The position numbers and the translations under genes are program-made. DNA of 64,000 nt, from IMG/VR virus record IMGVR_UViG_3300028886_000028, positions 224,001 to 288,000 of that record; one strand, 5' to 3'. Shown in pieces: positions 22,260-51,650 of this stretch. Source of the DNA: a virus (lineage: Duplodnaviria; Caudoviricetes). Each line of letters opens with the position of its first letter. Position 1 is the first letter of the stretch. Below the pieces are notes generated by a model. That model searched no databases. It worked only from the letters and a program-made list of their open reading frames with translations, and had not been told where the DNA came from.

Positions 22260-23882
22260 ATGATGGAAAAGGAAAAGCATAGTTTCGTACCTAATTTTGC
22301 TAACATAGCATTTACTGAAAATGGCGCAATATCTAAGTTTACAACTGGCAAGGTTATTACCGACCAATTCGGTAAGGCCGCTAACTATCGTGGACGTGAA
22401 ATTAGTGACGTTTTTAAAGACCAGGAATTACTTTGGCTTGAAAATAAAGAACAAGCAGTTCGTTTCCCGTTCTATTTGAGAATGGTGACTCGTAAGGTAA
22501 AGGTTAACGATAAAAACACCACTGATAAAGTTCAGAAAGGACAAGGCGTTCGTGACGAATCCTTTAAGCGTTTGCTTTGGCTTGCTGCCAATCAGCCGGA
22601 TTCGTTTTATAAGAACATATGGGTGTTACCTATGGTTGGCTGCTGGAAGGATTTGTGGACTTTGATGTATTACGATGTAATTCTCAAAACAAATGCCATT
22701 GACCGTTCCATAATCTTCGACCTTATTAATCAAGGTTTGAAGTGTTCTTCCCATATGGAATTGATTAAGAAGTTTATGCCTCGTGTTAAGACTAACACTA
22801 AGTGCAAAACTGATTGGACCCAGATTACAAACTCTCTTGCTCGTGAATTCGCAAATTATAACGGAATGTCATACAAGGATTATAACCATTTGAAGACAAG
22901 TGGCACAGCCCATGACTTTCAGAAACTTATTTGCAGCGGTCGTTTCAACGACATCAATTGGAATTTAATTCCAGGACGCGCTCTTAGCAAGATAACTACT
23001 CAGAAGTTCTTGTCAAAGCATGACCTTGAAAAAGGTTACACAGAATGGGTAATTTCTCAGCCTACTGTGAAATATACTGGCTATGTGTATGAATTGGCAA
23101 AGGAAGTGATAACTTCAGTCGGTTGGAGCGCAAGGGCCAATAAAATGCCTATTTTCAAGAAAATAACTATTGATAAACAGTTCGATGAATTAGTTAAAAA
23201 GGCAGTAGAAGACGGCAATGTTCTTGGAAACGTATGGTGCGCACTTGACACCAGTGGCTCAATGGGCGCTAGAGTTGTGGGAGATATAAGTGCATACGAT
23301 ATTTGTGTATCGTTGGGAGTATTCTTTTCTACAATTAACACAGGCGCATTCCATAAAAATGTAATAATGTTTGACAACACTTCGCAGGTTAAACAACTCA
23401 AAGGTGGTTTCTGCGATATGATTAATGACATTATTCATTCTAAAACTGCTTGGGGAGGTACTAACTTCCAAAGTGTCATAGACGAAATTGTAAGGGTTCG
23501 TAAAGAAAACCCTAGCATTCCTCTTGAAGATTATCCTCAGACATTGCTTATAGTTAGTGATATGCAATTCAATCCGGTTGGAGGCAACGAAGATACTAAT
23601 TATCAAGCAATGAAAAAGAAACTCTATACTGTTTTCCCAGAGGAATTTGTTAACAGTATGAAGTTTATTTGGTGGCAGGTAACTGGCCGTACAAATGATG
23701 CCCCTGCTACACTCGATGATAATGGATGCTATTTCTTTAGCGGATTCGATGGAAGCATAGTTTCTCTTCTTCTTGGTGGAGAAATGGCAGAAACTGAGGC
23801 TGAAACGAAAGTAAAGCCAACAATGGAGGAAATGATTAACGCCGCACTAGGACAAGAAATATTATCTTATGTAATAGCATAA
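22260..23882 (+). CDS. DUF2828-type helical + vWA protein (Ro60/TROVE-like architecture)
   Basis: N-terminal TENGA; GQGVR and GCWKDL segments; C-terminal MIDAS DTSGSM, WGGTNFQ, IVSDMQF. Confidence 0.75.
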   Translation: MMEKEKHSFVPNFANIAFTENGAISKFTTGKVITDQFGKAANYRGREISDVFKDQELLWLENKEQAVRFPFYLRMVTRKVKVNDKNTTDKVQKGQGVRDESFKRLLWLAANQPDSFYKNIWVLPMVGCWKDLWTLMYYDVILKTNAIDRSIIFDLINQGLKCSSHMELIKKFMPRVKTNTKCKTDWTQITNSLAREFANYNGMSYKDYNHLKTSGTAHDFQKLICSGRFNDINWNLIPGRALSKITTQKFLSKHDLEKGYTEWVISQPTVKYTGYVYELAKEVITSVGWSARANKMPIFKKITIDKQFDELVKKAVEDGNVLGNVWCALDTSGSMGARVVGDISAYDICVSLGVFFSTINTGAFHKNVIMFDNTSQVKQLKGGFCDMINDIIHSKTAWGGTNFQSVIDEIVRVRKENPSIPLEDYPQTLLIVSDMQFNPVGGNEDTNYQAMKKKLYTVFPEEFVNSMKFIWWQVTGRTNDAPATLDDNGCYFFSGFDGSIVSLLLGGEMAETEAETKVKPTMEEMINAALGQEILSYVIA

Positions 23883-32258: not shown

Positions 32259-32404
32259 GTAGATTGTCTTGATATGCGTTTTATTATAAATAAGGCTTAT
32301 TAGGTGGATAATCTACGCGGTTATCCACCTTTTTTGCATTTTTTAACTCATAAAATTTTTGTTTTATAAATATTTTATGTATATTTGCAAAGATTTAACA
32401 AACA

Positions 32405-32463
32405 AGGAAACATACAGCAAGTTTAATTTATGGATTGCAACTCTTTAAAAACAAATGTTTCCT
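32405..32463 (+). ncRNA. ACAGCAA cassette 1 (Cys GCA anticodon-loop cargo)
   Basis: aggaaacat/atgtttcct 9 bp; acagcaa; gga-ttgcaac-tct. Confidence 0.75.
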
Positions 32464-33283: not shown

Positions 33284-33351
33284 GGGAATTTACAGCAATT
33301 TTTGTTAAAACATATGAATATCTTACATAGAACGTTGAACACTTAGTTCCC
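33284..33351 (+). ncRNA. ACAGCAA cassette 2
   Basis: gggaatt/agttccc; tacagcaa; inner gttaaaaca...aacgttgaac shared with cassette 8. Confidence 0.75.
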
Positions 33352-33711: not shown

Positions 33712-33837
33712 CAAATAATAAATTAACATTTTTTTACAAGTTTTATTTTGCTTTTAAAATGTTTTTTTGTATATTTGCATAAATAACTCTAAATTTGAAA
33801 TTTCTCAACCTTGGCAAAGGCTAAAAACAATAAAGCA

Positions 33838-33973
33838 AGGAATCTAACAGCAAAAACTATATTTAGCAATTGGGGCCGTTGACGGTAGTTCGATTCTGCC
33901 TGCCCTGACGAACAATATGCGCTAAACATCAGGGTATAGTTCAGTGGTAGAATAACGTATTTAAATGATTCCT
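33838..33973 (+). ncRNA. ACAGCAA cassette 3 with circularly permuted tRNA-Pro-like domain
   Basis: aggaatc/gattcct; 3' half (T-arm, tgccctga) precedes 5' half (tcagggta, D-arm). Confidence 0.85.
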
Positions 33974-34345: not shown

Positions 34346-34458
34346 AGGAGTCTAACAGCATATGTATAATTACGACGGTTAGCTTAGTGGTTAAAGCCTT
34401 GGATTTTACTAAGAGACGTTGGTTCGAATCCAGCACCACCGGGTTTAAAATGACTCCT
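34346..34458 (+). ncRNA. ACAGCA cassette 4 with degenerate tRNA-Lys(TTT)-like body
   Basis: aggagtc/gactcct; D- and T-arms intact, acceptor mismatched, 6-nt anticodon loop. Confidence 0.8.
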
Positions 34459-34843: not shown

Positions 34844-34907
34844 GGGAGCGTACAGCAAAGTTTATGCATATTCACAGTAATTTTTGGGTAGTTAAACAGG
34901 CGTTCCC
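34844..34907 (+). ncRNA. ACAGCAA cassette 5 (minimal)
   Basis: gggagcg/cgttccc; tacagcaa. Confidence 0.7.
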
Positions 34908-37640: not shown

Positions 37641-37855
37641 ATTTATACGCCGAACAAAGGGCTACAGTAGGCAAACGTCAAACCAAAGCCCTTGAACCTC
37701 GTAAACGTCTCAACCGCATTATGCAAAGAGAGAGGTAACAGACCATTGGGCAATTCCATAGGAGTGTTGTTAGGACGTTTATTGCACCATCAATATGGTG
37801 CAATTTTTTTGTTTGTATATTTCTTTTTTTTAACTTTTTTTTGTATATTTGTATT

Positions 37856-38074
37856 ATGAAAAAATATGCAGAAAAATGTTGGCGATGTGGAAAGCCATTA
37901 ATATGTCACGGAAGCTTTATGATTAGTGACTGGGAAGGTATAGAAATGGATGAAAATGATGACGCTGTTATAACAGATTATTATTGTCCATATTGTGGTA
38001 TGGAATATTCTATTACAGATACGCCTAAAAATCAAATGAACAATTATCAATATTTTAAAAAAGAGCAAACATGA
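37856..38074 (+). CDS. small Zn-ribbon protein
   Basis: CWRC...CPYC. Confidence 0.6.
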   Translation: MKKYAEKCWRCGKPLICHGSFMISDWEGIEMDENDDAVITDYYCPYCGMEYSITDTPKNQMNNYQYFKKEQT

Positions 38075-40081: not shown

Positions 40082-40387
40082 ATGAATATAGACAAAATAA
40101 TAACAGAATCTATTAATAAAGTATTAAAAGAAGTTTGCGAAATAGACAATGCTCCTAATGGTTGGCATAGTTGGGCTGAAACAGATGCTGAAAATGGTAT
40201 GACGCCGGAAGAAGGTAAAGCAATTAGAATGCAGCCTGGTAATGCTGCTCGCGCTAAAGAACCAACACCAGTAACAACTGATTTCAGTAAAAGACCAACT
40301 GTTGAAGAATGGGAAGAAGTATATAAACCTATGGGTATGAAATATGGTGATTATTGTGAAAAAATTTATGGTGTTAAATTACGTTAA
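40082..40387 (+). CDS. hypothetical protein with IITESIN leader
   Basis: 101 aa; AATATTTATT upstream. Confidence 0.65.
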   Translation: MNIDKIITESINKVLKEVCEIDNAPNGWHSWAETDAENGMTPEEGKAIRMQPGNAARAKEPTPVTTDFSKRPTVEEWEEVYKPMGMKYGDYCEKIYGVKLR

Positions 40388-40586
40388 TTGCTTGTTTATT
40401 TGATTTTTTTTTTGTATATTTGCATTGTTAATTGAAAAAATAATAAATATGGTATACGTTTTAACATTTTTTGGCTTTATGACAGTGTTGGGCGCAATTA
40501 TAGCAGTAATTGAGGCAAGAAAAGCCCCATTGGTAAGTGATAAAGAGCCTTTTTTACATGATGATTATGTAGGAAATTAATATAAT

Positions 40587-40675: not shown

Positions 40676-40848
40676 AAGGAACGTACAGCAAGTTTGTTTT
40701 AAATGTAATTTATTTATTTATTCAGACTGAAGCGAGAATAGAGAAGCACAAAATAATAATTGCGAGGCACTATTCTTATTTTTTACCGCAAATAATGAAG
40801 AATTTCATAATTTGCAAAGTCATTCCCGGACTTAAAAGGGCGTTCCTT
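40676..40848 (+). ncRNA. ACAGCAA cassette 6 (long, cargo unclear)
   Basis: aaggaacg/cgttcctt 8 bp; tacagcaa. Confidence 0.7.
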
Positions 40849-41539: not shown

Positions 41540-41599
41540 TAAAATTTAACATAAAATATTTTGTTATCAAAATTTTTTTATGTATATTTGCGCAAAAAT

Positions 41600-41673
41600 T
41601 GGGAGTTAGCACAGTTGGTTAGTGCAGCTGACTGTTAATCAGCAGGTCGTGGGTTCGAGTCCCACACTCCCAG
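41600..41673 (+). tRNA. tRNA-Asn(GTT)
   Basis: gctga-ctgttaa-tcagc. Confidence 0.92.
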
Positions 41674-41680
41674 CACAAAT

Positions 41681-42519
41681 GGTGAGGTGGCAGAGTGGTC
41701 GATTGCACCGGTCTTGCGCCTAATTCGAGTGCTATGGCGAAAAATCCCATAGTAGAATCTCCCTAAAACGGTGGAAGTCCTTTGAGACTCCTATGAGAAT
41801 CCTTGTTGATTCAATAATGAGGTGACAATAATAACAAACACTAACCAATAATGTGTAAGGATAATACCGTGCTAAATTGAGAATAATACTAAAATTTATC
41901 ATATATGAGATAACAAATAGAGGAAACTAAATATGGTACTTGCGCAAAATTTTAGTTAGTATTAAAAATGAGTTGTATTCTTATATGGTAGACAGCCATT
42001 AAGTTGAGACGCTTAGTATAAATATGAGCATCAGGCGAGAGTGGGTTCAAACACCACCAACTCATTTATAAATTGAAAAGCATACAGAATATCCAAAAGT
42101 ATGTAAAAAGACGATGGTGCAACATAGTCAATTTTTAATTTATTTCTCATAAATGTGTAGAGAGTATATAGGAGATACCTAAGTTGAAATTAATTTGAGG
42201 GAAAGTACTCAGCGTAGTAATACGTAATACATGAAAATTGTATTTTAAAGGAGGTTTGCCAATTGGGATAGCCCTATCAAATTACTTGCAAGAATTTCAA
42301 TATGGTAAATATGTATTCCAGACTACAACGAACATAGGAGAAATAGCGAGGAGATAGTTCAAGACTAGAGCAGCAGTTCTTGTAAACTGAAGACAGTGGG
42401 TGTAATTCCCACACTTTTCGCCACGACTTTCTTCTAAATTTGGTTATGGCAACATAAAGTAGCAAGGAAAACCGGCGGACGTGACGAGCGTTCCGGGGGT
42501 TCGAATCCCTCCCTCACCG
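41681..42519 (+). tRNA. tRNA-Ser(TGA) split by an intron (exons 41681-41715, 42467-42519)
   Basis: Joining exons gives ccggt-cttgaaa-accgg, ggtgagg/cctcacc acceptor, long variable arm, G73. Confidence 0.9.
41716..42466 (+). mobile_element. group I intron (751 nt, no endonuclease ORF)
   Basis: Exon ends in U with P1 cttg/cgag; P3 atctcc/ggagat; Q-like aataccgtgctaa; R-like gtagagagtata and S-like aatatgtattcc with compensatory P7; ends in G. Confidence 0.85.
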
Positions 42520-42522
42520 CAT

Positions 42523-42873
42523 ATGATAAAACTTGAACATTTTAAAAAAGGCAATTATTATTATATAAATGCTTATAGTGGTGATACTAGAGTTGGAAAA
42601 CTTGGTATTGAATACAGAGGAAGCCAAAATATACATATTAATTATGTTATCACTAGCGTAAGTTACACCGGAAAAGGTATTGCTACTATGATGATTAACA
42701 AGGCTATTGAATTATTTAAAGGATATGATATAAGTCTTTATGTAGTACCAATGCCTAGGAGTGAAGAAAAAATTAAATATAAAACAATAAAAGGCCTTTC
42801 TGAATTTTACAATAAGTTTGGGTTTGTTCGTACTGATGACCCTTGTTTAGTTGAAATGATATTAAAAAGATGA
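42523..42873 (+). CDS. GNAT acetyltransferase
   Basis: YTGKGIAT acetyl-CoA motif, FYNKFGF; ORF-track start lies inside the tRNA, so start moved to 42523. Confidence 0.8.
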   Translation: MIKLEHFKKGNYYYINAYSGDTRVGKLGIEYRGSQNIHINYVITSVSYTGKGIATMMINKAIELFKGYDISLYVVPMPRSEEKIKYKTIKGLSEFYNKFGFVRTDDPCLVEMILKR

Positions 42874-43549: not shown

Positions 43550-43632
43550 GGATGCGTGTAAGGACTCCTCTGGGGAGTGACCGTGTGATTGACATCAGGT
43601 AACAAACATAGGTTCGAATCCTATTGCATCCA
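43550..43632 (+). ncRNA. tRNA-like element (acceptor + T-arm, aberrant D/anticodon arms)
   Basis: ggatgcg/tgcatcc; atagg-ttcgaat-cctat. Confidence 0.55.
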
Positions 43633-43818
43633 CAAATGCTTGATAATGAGTTTGGAGCAGTTAAAAAGGTGTGTGAAGCTCTAAATTAGTAGTTAGGCGG
43701 TATTATGTATGTGCTCTCGAAAGATTGAGCTGATTTAATATCGGTTAATGAACATGAAACAATTTCTCATTTCCGCAAGCATCAATAAAAATTGGGATGA
43801 AGATTAAGTAGTAGACAT

Positions 43819-43897
43819 GCATGGGTATTCAAGCGGCTGAAGCGCCTAGTATTACAAACTAGTACACCATACGTATGTTCGAATCCTATTGCATCCA
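43819..43897 (+). pseudogene. chimeric tRNA-Val(TAC)-like sequence
   Basis: ctagt-attacaa-actag; 3' end identical to 43612-43636; acceptor unpaired. Confidence 0.5.
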
Positions 43898-44047
43898 CAA
43901 AAGGTGTTCGAAAAAACGTAGTTCGAAATGCGTTGAAGTAGATTAAATGTGGAAAGTCGTACCCTTCCGAGCAGACGTGTTTTCCACGCCTCGTTTGGGC
44001 TAAAGTGGGCAGAGATTCACGCCTCCAACACAGCATCTTTTTTATAT

Positions 44048-44127: not shown

Positions 44128-44249
44128 AGGAAACTAACAGCAAGGTTAAAAATGGCTTGTAACCCGTGGGTCACAGGTTCGAATCCTGTCTTAGGCTTTA
44201 AAAGTCTGGGTAGCTCAGTTGGCAGAGCAACGTTAATAAAATGTTTCCT
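44128..44249 (+). ncRNA. ACAGCAA cassette 7 with circularly permuted tRNA-Thr(TGT)
   Basis: aggaaac/gtttcct; gg-cttgtaa-cccgt, T-arm, acceptor closed by ttaaa, D-arm, acg. Confidence 0.9.
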
Positions 44250-44423: not shown

Positions 44424-44500
44424 AGGGAACTAACAGCAAGTTATTATTTATGTTAAAACATCAGACTGCAAATTTGAAAACGTTGAACAAATAGTTCCCT
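44424..44500 (+). ncRNA. ACAGCAA cassette 8 with isolated Cys(GCA) anticodon arm
   Basis: agggaacta/tagttccct; tcaga-ctgcaaa-tttga. Confidence 0.82.
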
Positions 44501-44516
44501 AATATTCATATTAAAC

Positions 44517-44924
44517 GGGCCTAAATTGGTATAGATTGGCAGTAGTTTGGTAGAAATCAAGCAGTGGGCATACACTAGAAATAGCAAAAAAAATATAAAC
44601 GGCGAGAATGTAGATTCTCCTGCTTATGCTTACGCAATGGCTGCGTAAGGCATGAGTCGAGAGACTAGGCTCTTAGGAACAGAACATCCTAGTAATTTTT
44701 CTTAGCGTTGTACGTTAAGATGGTGGAACTGATGACTTCTAGTCATCCCCTAGTTTTCCTCGTTTTCACAAAATGAGGTGGCGGTGAGTTAACTTTCCAA
44801 TGTTTTCCTCGTTTTCTCAAAATGAGGTGGTCTCAAAGGCGGTGTCTTCGGACACTTTGGGTAAGCTTGTATAAATTTCTATGGAACACTGAACAAGACG
44901 AGGGTTCAACTCCCTCTAGGTCCA
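44517..44924 (+). ncRNA. ssrA: tmRNA
   Basis: gggccta/taggtcc with G3:U, T-arm; tag ORF 44601-44648 GENVDSPAYAYAMAA*. Confidence 0.92.
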
Positions 44925-45100
44925 CTAAATACTAAAAAAAAACTTATGAAACATTTTAGCGAAGGAAATCAAGAAGAAGAGTATGATTCTATGAAAGAAT
45001 ATGAAACTAACATACCTTCTCATTTTAAAGACGATTAAAAAAGTAACTTAAAATTTCTTTTTTACAATTTTTTTATGTATATTTGCAAAAAATATTGGTT

Positions 45101-45444: not shown

Positions 45445-45573
45445 AGGAAGTTGACAGCAAACGATAAGAAATTTTCCCAAGCCGGAGGTCGTTGGTTCGA
45501 ATCCAACTAGGAATTGTGTTTATCCTATAGCTCAGATGGTTTAGAGCGCCAGCTATTTCATTTAATGCTTCCT
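45445..45573 (+). ncRNA. ACAGCAA cassette 9 with circularly permuted tRNA-like domain (CCC loop)
   Basis: aggaagt/gcttcct; ttcccaa-gccgg, T-arm, tagga/tccta, D-arm, ccagc. Confidence 0.85.
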
Positions 45574-45655: not shown

Positions 45656-45682
45656 CGTAGTATAAAACGTTTCCTAAAATAT

Positions 45683-45756
45683 GGTGTACGTGGTTGAGTG
45701 GTTTAGGCGCAAGATTGTGGTTCTTGTCTACGCAGGTTCGAATCCTGTCGTACACC
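45683..45756 (+). tRNA. tRNA-His(GTG)
   Basis: G-1:C73; caaga-ttgtggt-tcttg. Confidence 0.9.
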
Positions 45757-46568: not shown

Positions 46569-46645
46569 GGCCCTATGGCAGAGTGGTCGATTGCGGTCGC
46601 TTCTAAACCGATTTATCATCGTGGGTTCGAATCCTACTAGGGTCA
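46569..46645 (+). tRNA. amber suppressor tRNA (CTA)
   Basis: gtcgc-ttctaaa-ccgat; ggcccta/tagggtc; canonical T-arm. Confidence 0.75.
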
Positions 46646-46829
46646 CTACGGCTTGGTGTATCCATTGAGATACTGAAATAGGTTAGACAAGCACAAGTCA
46701 CGTAAGAAATGACAGGCAGGCAGTAATGCTGTGCGAGGATTAGTCCCTTGCTCTAATCTCTTGATGGTAATAGAGACCTTTTTAAGTTAGAGGTTAAACT
46801 TATATTTTTTTAAAAAAGTATTAATAATT

Positions 46830-47078: not shown

Positions 47079-47152
47079 CAGTAAAAGGTTCATCCTAAAG
47101 CTCTATTCGTAGGAATGCTGAAGGACTGAGTGTTCGAATCACTCCTAGTCCA
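47072..47152 (+). ncRNA. tRNA-like mini-RNA with Ala-type acceptor (G3:U) and no D-arm
   Basis: gggctag/ctagtcc-a; gagtg-ttcgaat-cactc. Confidence 0.65.
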
Positions 47153-47170
47153 CAAATTTAAATAAAAGTT

Positions 47171-47698: not shown

Positions 47699-48430
47699 AA
47701 ATCTCTTTTATACACCCTAGTAGTTTAAATCGTGAAAACTAGATGTATTCTAATGGTGAGTCGAATCATCCTGGGGCACTTTAGTCCTATTATTCCCTGA
47801 GAGTTGCCTAGCGTCACTCAAAGTAGTAGGTTTTGTGAATGGGTAACTGTATGAAATGGCTGTTTGTATCTTATCGTGTAGATGCATGGCACGTCATACA
47901 AACACAATGGAGATAAATCATGCAACTTATCATCCTTGTTCACACAAAGTACCCATTCAATTTTTTTAAAAGTTTGTGATAATTATGGATGGGTTTGATT
48001 ACAAAAATGGAGAACTAGTCTGTAAAAGATGCGGAAGCAGAAATGTATCAGTAAGAGCTGGTATGATGACAGACAGAGCGATATGTAATAGTTGTGGTAA
48101 TGAAGATTACATTTAACAAAAATTAATATTTTTAATTTCTTTTTTATAATTATTTTTTGTATATTTGCGTTGTAATAAGAAAAACATATGGCTTCGCTAT
48201 CAAGAAGTCAAAGGCATAACAGCCTATCGCATTTGTCCATAGCGCTTGTAACTTTGCGAACGGCGGGCTTTTCTCTAGTACAGCCTAAAAACTTGAGGGT
48301 TAGTTGTTTATCCACAAAGCAAGCACGGGTTCGAGGAAATTGGTGGTGCGTCTATAAATCCTCCGAATAACCCACGATAAGGGTGTCGTTTTGTCTGTTG
48401 TACGGCACTAGTAAAACAATAGATAATTAT

Positions 48431-49818: not shown

Positions 49819-50319
49819 ATGATAGGTTCATTACATACAATGAGTTATCTTAAACCTTGCAATGTTTTTTTAAAATTTTTTGCAAGGTTTAAAAGGACTC
49901 AAACAGTTAATATAAAAGAGCAGTATGAAAAATACAATATAAGGGTGTTTGACTTTCATATATACTTTGTTGGAATAAATGGCAAAGCCATTTTTAAATA
50001 CAGTGGTATAAAATACGAAATATCTTCTATGTACAAAATATTCAATTATTTAGAATACGTTGGCAATTCTTATGTTAGAATTGTATTAGAAGATAATGGT
50101 GAGAAAATCACAGAAAACGATAGGCTTTTACTTGAAAAACGTTTTATTGATTATTGTAAGATAATAGAGACTATATATCCCAGAATAAAATTTTTCGGAG
50201 GGTATAGAGAATATGATTCAAACATGTTATATAGATTTAAAAATGACGCTCCTAATGATTTAATCTTTTATAAAAGAGTTGATAAATTAAATAAATTCGC
50301 CGGTGGGGGAGTGGTTTAA
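49819..50319 (+). CDS. PI-PLC X-domain-like protein (degenerate)
   Basis: IGSLHTMSY..TQTVNIKEQYE..IRVFDF resembles the PLC-X N-terminus. Confidence 0.45.
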   Translation: MIGSLHTMSYLKPCNVFLKFFARFKRTQTVNIKEQYEKYNIRVFDFHIYFVGINGKAIFKYSGIKYEISSMYKIFNYLEYVGNSYVRIVLEDNGEKITENDRLLLEKRFIDYCKIIETIYPRIKFFGGYREYDSNMLYRFKNDAPNDLIFYKRVDKLNKFAGGGVV

Positions 50320-50384
50320 CCCAGCAGTCTCCAAAACTGCCGTAGCTTAGGCTACCGCATGTTCGAATCGTGCCCGGCGAGCCA
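50297..50384 (+). tRNA. tRNA with CCA (Trp) anticodon and long variable arm
   Basis: gcagt-ctccaaa-actgc; gtagc/gctac arm; GCCA end. Confidence 0.85.
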
Positions 50385-50389
50385 TTTAC

Positions 50390-50466
50390 GGCGTGATAGC
50401 TCAGTTGGTCAGAGCAACAGACTCATATTCTGTGGGCCGTAAGTTCGAATCTTACTCACGCTACCA
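50390..50466 (+). tRNA. tRNA-Met/Ile2(CAT)
   Basis: acaga-ctcatat-tctgt; ACCA end. Confidence 0.88.
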
Positions 50467-50578
50467 AGGGAACTTACAGCAAGTATTCATCGTGAAGGAA
50501 TGGTCTACTTGAAAGTCTTAAGAGCTTTTGTGCGTAAGCACTTGTGGGTTCGAATCCCACCGAAAATAAAAGTTCCCT
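50467..50578 (+). ncRNA. ACAGCAA cassette 10 with acceptor-less tRNA-Leu(TAA) body
   Basis: agggaactt/aagttccct; aaagt-cttaaga-gcttt, variable arm gtgc/gcac, T-arm. Confidence 0.85.
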
Positions 50579-51118: not shown

Positions 51119-51215
51119 CAATTGATTTTTGTCAAGTATTGGCATAAAAAAACGCATAACACATCGTTTTTTTTCTTTATTATATTATTTTTATGTATAT
51201 TTGCAGCGTGAAAAG

Positions 51216-51650
51216 ATGGAGAAACATATAAAAATTATTACAAGGTTATTTAAAGAAGCAGGTGTATTTCCTAGTAAACAATATCGTCATATCATCAATT
51301 ATATAGAAGAAAAAAAATGTTGCGTTTTTTACGGAAGAGACGACATTAGTTATGGAAAATTAGGTGTTGAATATGAAATTAAATTTTTAAAATTACAATT
51401 TGACATTGTAAAAAAATTAATTGAATATGATTTATTAACAATACCTGAATATAATATTATACTATTTGACACAATAGGTAGATATGACATTAGATTTGCA
51501 AGCGAAGATTATAATAAATGGTACAGAGTTGCAAAAGAAACAAATAAAAAAGAGTTCGTTGATTATTTTTTTAACGTATATGAGGATAAAATTGGTAGCA
51601 TTAAAGAAAGCAAAAAAGTATCTGTAAGGATGGGCTTGCCAAGGGATTAA
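51216..51650 (+). CDS. hypothetical protein
   Basis: ATG after early promoter; ITRLFKEAGVF. Confidence 0.55.
   Translation: MEKHIKIITRLFKEAGVFPSKQYRHIINYIEEKKCCVFYGRDDISYGKLGVEYEIKFLKLQFDIVKKLIEYDLLTIPEYNIILFDTIGRYDIRFASEDYNKWYRVAKETNKKEFVDYFFNVYEDKIGSIKESKKVSVRMGLPRD

Follow-up and report, generated by a model that had tools for sequence, protein, structure and literature searches.

The 112-base element at positions 50467-50578 of the window, as we call the 64,000-nucleotide stretch analysed here (positions 224,001 to 288,000 of IMG/VR record IMGVR_UViG_3300028886_000028), appears to encode a small non-decoding RNA, and we lean towards reading it as a Y-RNA-like adaptor or decoy with Yrn1-type topology. 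The window is part of the 401-kb genome of a gut phage (Duplodnaviria; Caudoviricetes) with a G+C content of 31%. The presumed RNA would belong to a family defined by a handle, that is, a 6-9-bp helix joining the two ends together with the unpaired motif UUACAGCAA(G) after its 5' strand. The cargo of this handle would be a tRNA-shaped core with an intact elbow, joined to it through the former acceptor stem. With 11 cassettes in one genome and orthologues in eight other contigs, the observation exceeds chance by far.

The layout of the element is given in Table 1. The two strands of the handle helix P1, AGGGAACTT and AAGTTCCCT, form a perfect 9-bp inverted repeat, and no further exact copies of this handle word occur within the 64-kb window. 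As claimed in the original prediction, which had been made from the letters of the DNA alone, the helix encloses the D, anticodon (UAA), variable and T arms in native order, and the anticodon arm (aaagt-cttaaga-gcttt) reads exactly as given there. The minimum-energy structure is closed by the handle, in agreement with the proposal that the handle closes the RNA at the acceptor side, and this topology is conserved in relatives. The fold of the whole RNA had z = -3.4 relative to shuffles. The claim that the handle replaces the acceptor stem was borne out in part: the acceptor is degenerate, but an asymmetric internal loop splits the handle from the tRNA core (its 5' side is 17 nt long and contains ACAGCAAG, its 3' side 9 nt), and an acceptor remnant of 3-4 pairs persists beside the T stem. 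There is no free discriminator or CCA at the 3' linker, which runs into the handle strand. The core tertiary positions U8, A14 and G18-G19 and the T-loop are present. No open reading frame (ORF) of at least 40 aa overlapping 50467-50578 was found.

Related phages were found by two routes, the DUF2828 protein described below and a DNA pattern with ACAGCAAG and the D loop as anchors. When 7 kb were compared with GenBank phages by megablast, the sole match was 36 nt of tRNA-Met, and no relatives were obtained via the adjacent 166-aa ORF. A syntenic orthologous cassette was identified in eight IMG/VR contigs, seven of which are among the DUF2828-encoding contigs, and a tRNA with the anticodon CAU stands directly before the cassette in 9/9 contigs. 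Because MAFFT/RNAalifold misaligned the 3' handle strand, pairs were counted from a motif-anchored parse of the nine sequences in Python. According to this parse, 61 of 63 cells of handle helix P1 are standard pairs, with two pair types at five of seven positions. The D stem is made up of standard pairs throughout (27/27), its pair 1 swapping from A-T to G-C, as is the anticodon stem (45/45), where four of five positions covary; the T stem shows standard pairs in 43/45 cells with compensatory changes. The motif ACAGCAAG and the D-loop core GAATGG are invariant, and the T loop is nearly so. The long variable arm was found in 4/9 sequences, where it covaries (GTGC/GCAC versus GCGC/GCGC), and is absent in 5/9.

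Neither the sequence nor the pairing of the acceptor-position linkers is kept. In the tRNA register these linkers form 0-4 pairs, with duplex energies from -1.2 to +2.2 kcal/mol, and the 3' linker of the orthologues is 5-10 nt long, A/T-rich and unconserved. The anticodon triplets of the nine syntenic copies are TAA, AAA, AGA, ACA, GTA and GCA (four times). The corresponding loop is CTTAAGA here and CTAAAAA, CTAGAAA, CTACAAA, CTGTAAA, CTGCAAA (three times) and TTGCAAC in the relatives; positions 34 and 35 are the most variable, while A36 is invariant. To our knowledge, anticodons with A34 are not normally used, except ACG. As a separate observation, the CAU tRNA about 90 nt upstream of the cassette has a type II body in loci L017, L018, L019, L021, L022 and L023, its variable arm being long and its D arm of the GCAGAGTGGTC type; these odd Met/Ile2-like tRNAs might carry another amino acid.

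The original prediction assigned the body to tRNA-Leu(TAA) and expected tRNA-finding programs to return a pseudogene or nothing. ARAGORN does call tRNA-Leu(taa) at 50486-50568 with 4/7 Watson-Crick acceptor pairs. The call agrees with the assignment, but the identity is not conserved: the orthologues carry AAA, AGA, ACA, GTA or GCA, and five of the nine sequences are without the long variable arm. ARAGORN calls no tRNA in 5/9 orthologues. An intact tRNA-Leu with unconserved flanks, the outcome that the original prediction had named as speaking against it, was not seen in the related phages. The match of the element to the Rfam tRNA model RF00005 scored 37.1 bits (gathering threshold 29), the second lowest of the 24 above-threshold tRNA matches in the window, and three non-canonical acceptor pairs were flagged in the alignment. 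Instead of a 7-bp acceptor stem the element has 4/7 Watson-Crick pairs, and the orthologues have 0-4.

At genome positions 367952-368038 the phage encodes a canonical tRNA-Leu(UAA) that has A37 and an acceptor of 7 bp. The element shares with it the 3-bp D stem, a GAAT(T)GGT-type loop, the long variable arm, the T arm GTGGG/TTCGAAT and the UAA triplet. In contrast to this tRNA, the element has no functional acceptor stem and no free discriminator or CCA, it carries G37, and its anticodon is not conserved in orthologues. Since the anticodon varies, the acceptor is not kept and a canonical tRNA-Leu(UAA) exists elsewhere, the element does not look like a decoding tRNA. The handle, the elbow and a helical anticodon arm are maintained by selection, whereas the acceptor and the codon identity are not; consequently, we regard the element as a tRNA mimic, neither a tRNA nor a decaying pseudogene, and probably not a working leucine tRNA. 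With no free acceptor end, the tRNA-like body would be unchargeable.

The genome has 11 cassettes, each of them on the + strand and none outside its two tRNA arrays. Ten of them, including 50467-50578, are in the window, and one lies 35 kb upstream of the window in the second, small tRNA cluster. Each cassette consists of a short helix, UUACAGCAA, variable cargo and a closing strand. The consensus runs (C)AA, GGRAnnn, one base, ACAGCA(A/G), variable cargo, A/T-rich 3' linker, nnnTYCC and usually TAA, with ACAGCA found in 11/11 cassettes. The helix sequences vary among copies yet remain complementary. The cargo is a permuted tRNA in at least three copies, a native-order tRNA in two (50467-50578 and 34346-34458) and no tRNA body in the rest; the copy upstream of the window has a T-loop motif, but otherwise no tRNA body by these tests. 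The three permuted cassettes (33839-33972, 44129-44248 and 45446-45572) are called as tRNAs only after circular permutation, which confirms that their handle is attached at the anticodon side. Both topologies have the handle and the D-loop/T-loop elbow in common and differ in the projecting part, an anticodon arm versus a sealed acceptor-like helix, and would thus expose different tRNA surfaces, as had been proposed.

A lone 3' half of a handle, CGTTTCC followed by TAAAAT, was noted after tRNA-Asp at window 45657-45683. For the 5' strand GGAAGT at 45446 there are thus two possible partners, 45567-45572 and this copy at 45669-45674; pairing with the latter would also enclose the tRNA-Asp.

The candidate partner of the handle is the protein encoded at window 22260-23882. 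Pfam assigned it to DUF7788 (E = 1.4e-20), with weak matches to DUF2828 and VWA_2. It has 1,727 homologues at E <= 1e-5, the few named ones being 'hypothetical protein' or 'DUF2828 family protein', and a literature search on DUF2828 returned nothing relevant by title or abstract. An AlphaFold2 model was built from 20 homologues, with a predicted local distance difference test (pLDDT) score of 73.5. The top 12 Foldseek matches of this model were all Ro60 chains (probability 1.00), and so were the top 10 matches in VIA-align (Z 15.0-9.8, residues 30-538). The Z score was 15.0 for the Ro60 of Thermus phage phiLo, 13.3 for human Ro60 and 11.5 for that of D. radiodurans, compared with <=8.4 for structures with only a vWA domain. 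With moderate confidence, the protein is thus modelled as a helical-repeat ring with a C-terminal vWA domain carrying a MIDAS motif (metal ion-dependent adhesion site), Ro60-like in architecture only.

Linkage between the handle and the protein gene was examined in 79 IMG/VR loci around homologues of the protein (24-79% identity). The gene strand holds 44 handles defined by a regular expression and the opposite strand 11, compared with a total of about 12 for the two strands in shuffles. In 11/79 loci a handle element of 38-176 nt ends 5-171 nt upstream of the protein match, where about 0.3 would be expected by chance; an ATG follows within a few bases in several of these, and they include a protein that is only 27% identical. 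The hexamer ACAGCA occurs <=250 nt upstream in 33/79 loci, or in 25 after eight coding-sequence artefacts were dropped, against a background of 0.39 per kb. Minimal elements hold only the helix, ACAGCAA and an A/T-rich loop, which identifies the handle as the constant module. This linkage, seen at the level of sequence, is our main argument that the protein may recognise the handle. In several loci of divergent phages (L051 5417-5467, L052 9903-9948, L057 9923-9960, L076 9955-9996 and others) a minimal handle ends a few bases before the DUF2828 start codon, a position suggesting that the protein may regulate its own translation.

Mimicry of tRNAs is known from bacterial and phage Y RNAs (PMC4201824). 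YrlA is permuted with a sealed acceptor-like helix, whereas Yrn1 of D. radiodurans is oriented the other way round, and its 'anticodon arm' consists of a 5-bp stem and a loop of 6 nt; an independent origin of the two was assumed by the authors (Chen et al. 2014, PMC4201824). The element resembles Yrn1, a partner of Rsr/Ro60, in that the stem for the ring protein would stand at the acceptor position and D-like and T-like arms flank a 5-bp 'anticodon arm'; both would be uncharged and non-decoding, and the other native-order cassette, 34346-34458, shares the 6-nt 'anticodon' loop of Yrn1. They differ in that ACAGCAAG of the element lies in a loop and the GNCGAA-type bases of Yrn1 lie in a stem. 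Furthermore, the candidate protein of the element is not a Pfam TROVE protein, the element possesses a complete D arm as well as, in this genome, a long variable arm, and it sits in a tRNA array and not beside the protein gene. With YrlA (RF02553; bacteria and mycobacteriophages) the element has in common that a tRNA mimic is carried on a terminal stem and that the T and D loops are the most conserved parts. YrlA is permuted, however, with the stem on the anticodon side, an order seen in the sister cassettes and not in the element. None of the Rfam Y-RNA models match the element, and RF02553 gave no match to it at E up to 10; the sister cassettes at 44129-44248 and 45446-45572 reached 34.3 and 27.6 bits, respectively, against a gathering threshold of 69.

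A second phage comparison is provided by the Ro60 of Thermus phage phiLo, the best structural match of the 22260-23882 protein, with which it has no detectable sequence similarity. PhiLo Ro60 binds two RNAs (Yrl1/Yrl2) encoded upstream of its gene (PMC12135203; PDB 9KOP, 9L5Y). In each of these RNAs, a large bulge that contains a conserved CGAA motif is flanked by a terminal stem, and host polynucleotide phosphorylase (PNPase) is recruited by the complex (PMC12135203). Yrl1/Yrl2 and the element follow the same grammar, with CGAA in the former and ACAGCAA in the latter; two RNAs adjoin the gene in phiLo compared with 11 dispersed in tRNA arrays here, and no tRNA-like cargo of Yrl1/Yrl2 was noted in the passages covered.

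In sequence, the nearest counterpart of the handle is found in the Class I RNAs of dictyostelid social amoebae. These are RNAs of 42-65 nt with a Dictyostelium upstream sequence element (DUSE) promoter, a short covarying terminal stem and a motif of ~11 nt (Kjellin et al. 2021, PMC7919456). They were reported to be unique to Dictyostelia and to be bound by Rnp1A/Cibp, a protein with an RNA recognition motif (RRM) (PMC7919456). In Class I RNAs (RF01414), as in the element, a stem joins the ends, an unpaired motif follows the 5' strand and the remainder is variable. The RF01414 consensus contains CUUACAGCAAU where the element has UUACAGCAAG, and UUACAGCAA is identical to the core of the consensus. 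A minimal phage element matched RF01414 from end to end with 20.3 bits, the best phage score (gathering threshold 41.5), while nothing in the window, neither the 112-nt element nor the short cassettes, gave a match to this model. Unlike Class I RNAs, the element carries a tRNA body, is 112 nt long and is encoded by a phage, with TTTG...TAnnTTTG promoter-like repeats rather than DUSE. We file it under none of these families: by analogy, it may work most like a Y RNA, its topology is that of Yrn1, and its handle follows the grammar of Class I RNAs.

In the mechanism that we propose, the handle would most likely dock on the phage Ro60-like ring protein (DUF2828/DUF7788), and the unchargeable tRNA-like body would offer its elbow and free anticodon arm to some factor that binds tRNAs, or else serve as a decoy for such a factor. 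The genome encodes RtcB (316545-317735) and a CCA-adding-type nucleotidyltransferase (291447-291860), both outside the window, and carries more than 30 tRNA genes and a transfer-messenger RNA (tmRNA). Together, these fit a tRNA-centred repair or quality-control setting, and the rsr-yrlBA-rtcBA operon of Salmonella is reportedly a comparable one. No Rnl2-type RNA ligase was found in the genome.

Several observations weigh against such a Ro60-like partnership. Pfam TROVE had no match in six frames of the genome, and neither single-sequence nor profile searches detected similarity of the protein to the Ro60 sequences in PDB. The predicted link to Ro60 comes from a model of moderate confidence, with a pLDDT of 73.5 and template modelling (TM) scores of 0.4-0.56. 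The motif GNCGAAN0-1G/CGAA of known Ro60-bound Y RNAs, which in YrlA takes the form GNCGAAN0-1G near the 5' end (Chen et al. 2014), is absent, and the element has ACAGCAAG. The protein gene lies 26.6 kb upstream of the cassette at 50467-50578, and no handle was found in the leader of the DUF7788/DUF2828 gene of this genome. The linkage across phages fits a free partner RNA or a leader operator alike, so that the upstream handles could be cis-regulatory operators. Moreover, the tight position of the element after a tRNA is equally compatible with a role in the processing of the tRNA operon.

This last point leads to the main rival, according to which the element is a cis-acting spacer in the tRNA transcript that directs or protects 3' processing, blocks 3'-to-5' exonucleases or terminates, its tRNA-like interior being incidental. 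We judge it unlikely, although it is supported by the 0-nt gap that separates the cassette from the CCA of tRNA-Met, by the CAU-anticodon tRNA standing before it in 9/9 contigs, by other cassettes that end 7-17 nt before the next tRNA or tmRNA, and by a terminator-like TGTTTT... run after four orthologues. A mere spacer would need neither covarying D, anticodon and T stems nor both elbow loops, and the motif and helix recur just upstream of DUF2828 genes, outside the tRNA setting. In addition, a terminator scan after the cassette found none (the flank here is TAAT), and a helix of 7-9 bp is a short substrate for RNase III. Functionless decay of a tRNA pseudogene between the arms of a repeated hairpin is very improbable: neutral decay would leave neither three stems intact by compensatory change nor the loop cores nearly invariant in nine contigs whose partner proteins are 53-79% identical, and the second native-order cassette (34346-34458) is likewise conserved in relatives. 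The degenerate acceptor stem, G37 in place of A37 beside the UAA anticodon and the differing anticodons of the relatives are nevertheless the features that decay would leave.

The opposite proposal, a genuine tRNA-Leu(UAA) whose precursor is held by the extended helix and then trimmed to a tRNA with a weak, mismatched acceptor, is in line with the above-threshold calls by ARAGORN and Rfam and with the presence of U8, A14, G18-G19 and the T-loop; we also infer that UUA should be a common codon at 31% G+C. It is largely refuted by the relatives, in which the anticodon changes and all acceptor pairing is often lost. Here, too, only 4/7 acceptor pairs form, with three flagged as non-canonical, the 3' strand enters the handle without a discriminator or CCA, and the canonical tRNA-Leu(UAA) is present elsewhere in the genome, so that we give this proposal hardly any credence. 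Terminal inverted repeats, variable cargo and many copies per genome would also suit a mobile DNA element with captured tRNA fragments, similar to a miniature inverted-repeat transposable element (MITE). However, the helix sequences differ between copies of one genome, and therefore the cassettes are not recent copies; their positions are syntenic among phages, the conserved motif is asymmetric and present on one strand only, and the G-U pairs of the helix make sense only at the RNA level. A mobile element is accordingly scarcely credible. A self-cleaving ribozyme (HDV-like 'theta', hatchet, hammerhead or twister) was rejected: the Rfam ribozyme models gave no match either over 19 kb (E up to 5) or on the element itself (E up to 10); a closing strand at the extreme 3' end is presumably also a misfit to the hepatitis delta virus (HDV)-like fold.

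A more specific reading, to which we assign a slim chance, can be put forward for the native-order cassettes. They might be 'anticodon display' RNAs, in which a Ro60-like particle would hold out the elbow and the anticodon loop, whose positions 34/35 differ among close relatives of the phage while A36 is fixed. Such RNAs could serve as decoys for host anticodon-directed nucleases, or as loop-loop bait capturing particular tRNAs or tRNA halves for repair by RtcB.

Table 1. Features of the element, its sister cassettes and the candidate partner gene (window coordinates).
Feature	Position	Strand	Remarks
Upstream neighbour, tRNA-Met(CAT)	50390..50466	+	Ends in CCA, 0-nt spacer to handle; ARAGORN, Rfam 72.2 bits
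Handle helix P1, 5' strand AGGGAACTT	50467..50475	+	Perfect complement of 50570-50578
Conserved unpaired motif ACAGCAAG	50476..50483	+	With the two preceding T's, UUACAGCAA
5' linker, vestigial acceptor 5' strand TATTCATCG	50484..50492	+	Reliable pairing only of TCG with CGA 50561-50563
U8, G9, D arm (AAG / GAATGGTCTA / CTT), G26	50493..50511	+	3-bp D stem
Anticodon arm AAAGT-CTTAAGA-GCTTT	50512..50528	+	Triplet TAA at 50519-50521
Long variable arm GTGC-GTAA-GCAC with flanks	50529..50543	+	4-bp stem
T arm GTGGG-TTCGAAT-CCCAC	50544..50560	+	T stem and loop
3' linker, vestigial acceptor 3' strand CGAAAATAA	50561..50569	+	9 nt, A-rich; continues directly into handle
Handle helix P1, 3' strand AAGTTCCCT	50570..50578	+	Followed by TAA
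Native-order cassette, Lys(UUU)-like body	34346..34458	+	6-nt anticodon loop, 5/7 acceptor pairs; orthologues in two related phages
Permuted-tRNA cassette	44129..44248	+	Handle at anticodon side; Rfam YrlA 34.3 bits, full-length; ARAGORN call only after permutation
Permuted-tRNA cassette	45446..45572	+	Rfam YrlA 27.6 bits, full-length; ARAGORN call only after permutation
Permuted-tRNA cassette	33839..33972	+	ARAGORN call only after permutation
Short cassette, handle and ACAGCAAG without tRNA parts	32406..32462	+	
Cargo-less or other-cargo cassettes	33284-33351, 34844-34907, 40678-40846, 44425-44499	+	
DUF7788 protein (weak DUF2828/VWA)	22260..23882	+	Predicted Ro60-like fold, DTSGS MIDAS-type motif; candidate partner

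Further features of the window were noted. The tRNA called Trp(CCA) at window 50297-50384 measures 88 nt, and its variable arm is long (type II), an unusual shape in a tRNA-Trp; both related phages have orthologues of 86-89 nt. A suppressor-type tRNA with the anticodon CUA (ARAGORN 'tRNA-Pyl', window 46569-46646) is conserved in both relatives and hints at TAG read-through or recoding in part of the phage. T-arm-like or tRNA-like pieces with no ARAGORN call were observed at window 42029-42057, 42348-42420, 42467-42523, 43550-43636, 43868-43901 and 47124-47155; two of them scored 30 and 25.5 bits with the Rfam tRNA model, and they may be more tRNA mimics or fragments. Between the phage tmRNA (tag GENVDSPAYAYAMAA, window 44517-44925) and the handle cassette before it lie 17 nt; the tmRNA, too, is conserved in both relatives.

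A T-rich repeat ending in TGTATATTTGCA is present in eight copies, at window 32351-32400, 33741-33790, 37815-37864, 40386-40435, 41554-41603, 45049-45098, 48131-48180 and 51167-51216. Its form, TTTG...TAnnTTTG, is what we take to be a Bacteroidota-type promoter, and the repeats suggest a host in the phylum Bacteroidota and several transcription units in the tRNA array.

tRNA-mimicking Y RNAs are known in two unrelated forms, YrlA and Yrn1, each in its own lineage. Here, in one phage, a single handle carries both YrlA-type and Yrn1-type topologies as well as cargo-less hairpins, in 11 genes within tRNA arrays. This points to a modular system, with the handle as a constant adaptor and tRNA-derived bodies as interchangeable cargo. 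If the DUF2828 protein binds the handle, the large unannotated family of its 1,727 homologues would acquire the role of a divergent Ro60, a partner would be found for a widespread RNA motif that Rfam lacks, and the Dictyostelium Class I RNAs would gain a testable hypothesis. Should the native-order cassettes display their anticodon loops as decoy or bait, the family would be a modular, fast-evolving counter-defence ribonucleoprotein sharing its handle with the unexplained Class I RNAs. In phage biology, the element would be a further candidate participant in the arms race over tRNAs in which phages face host nucleases.

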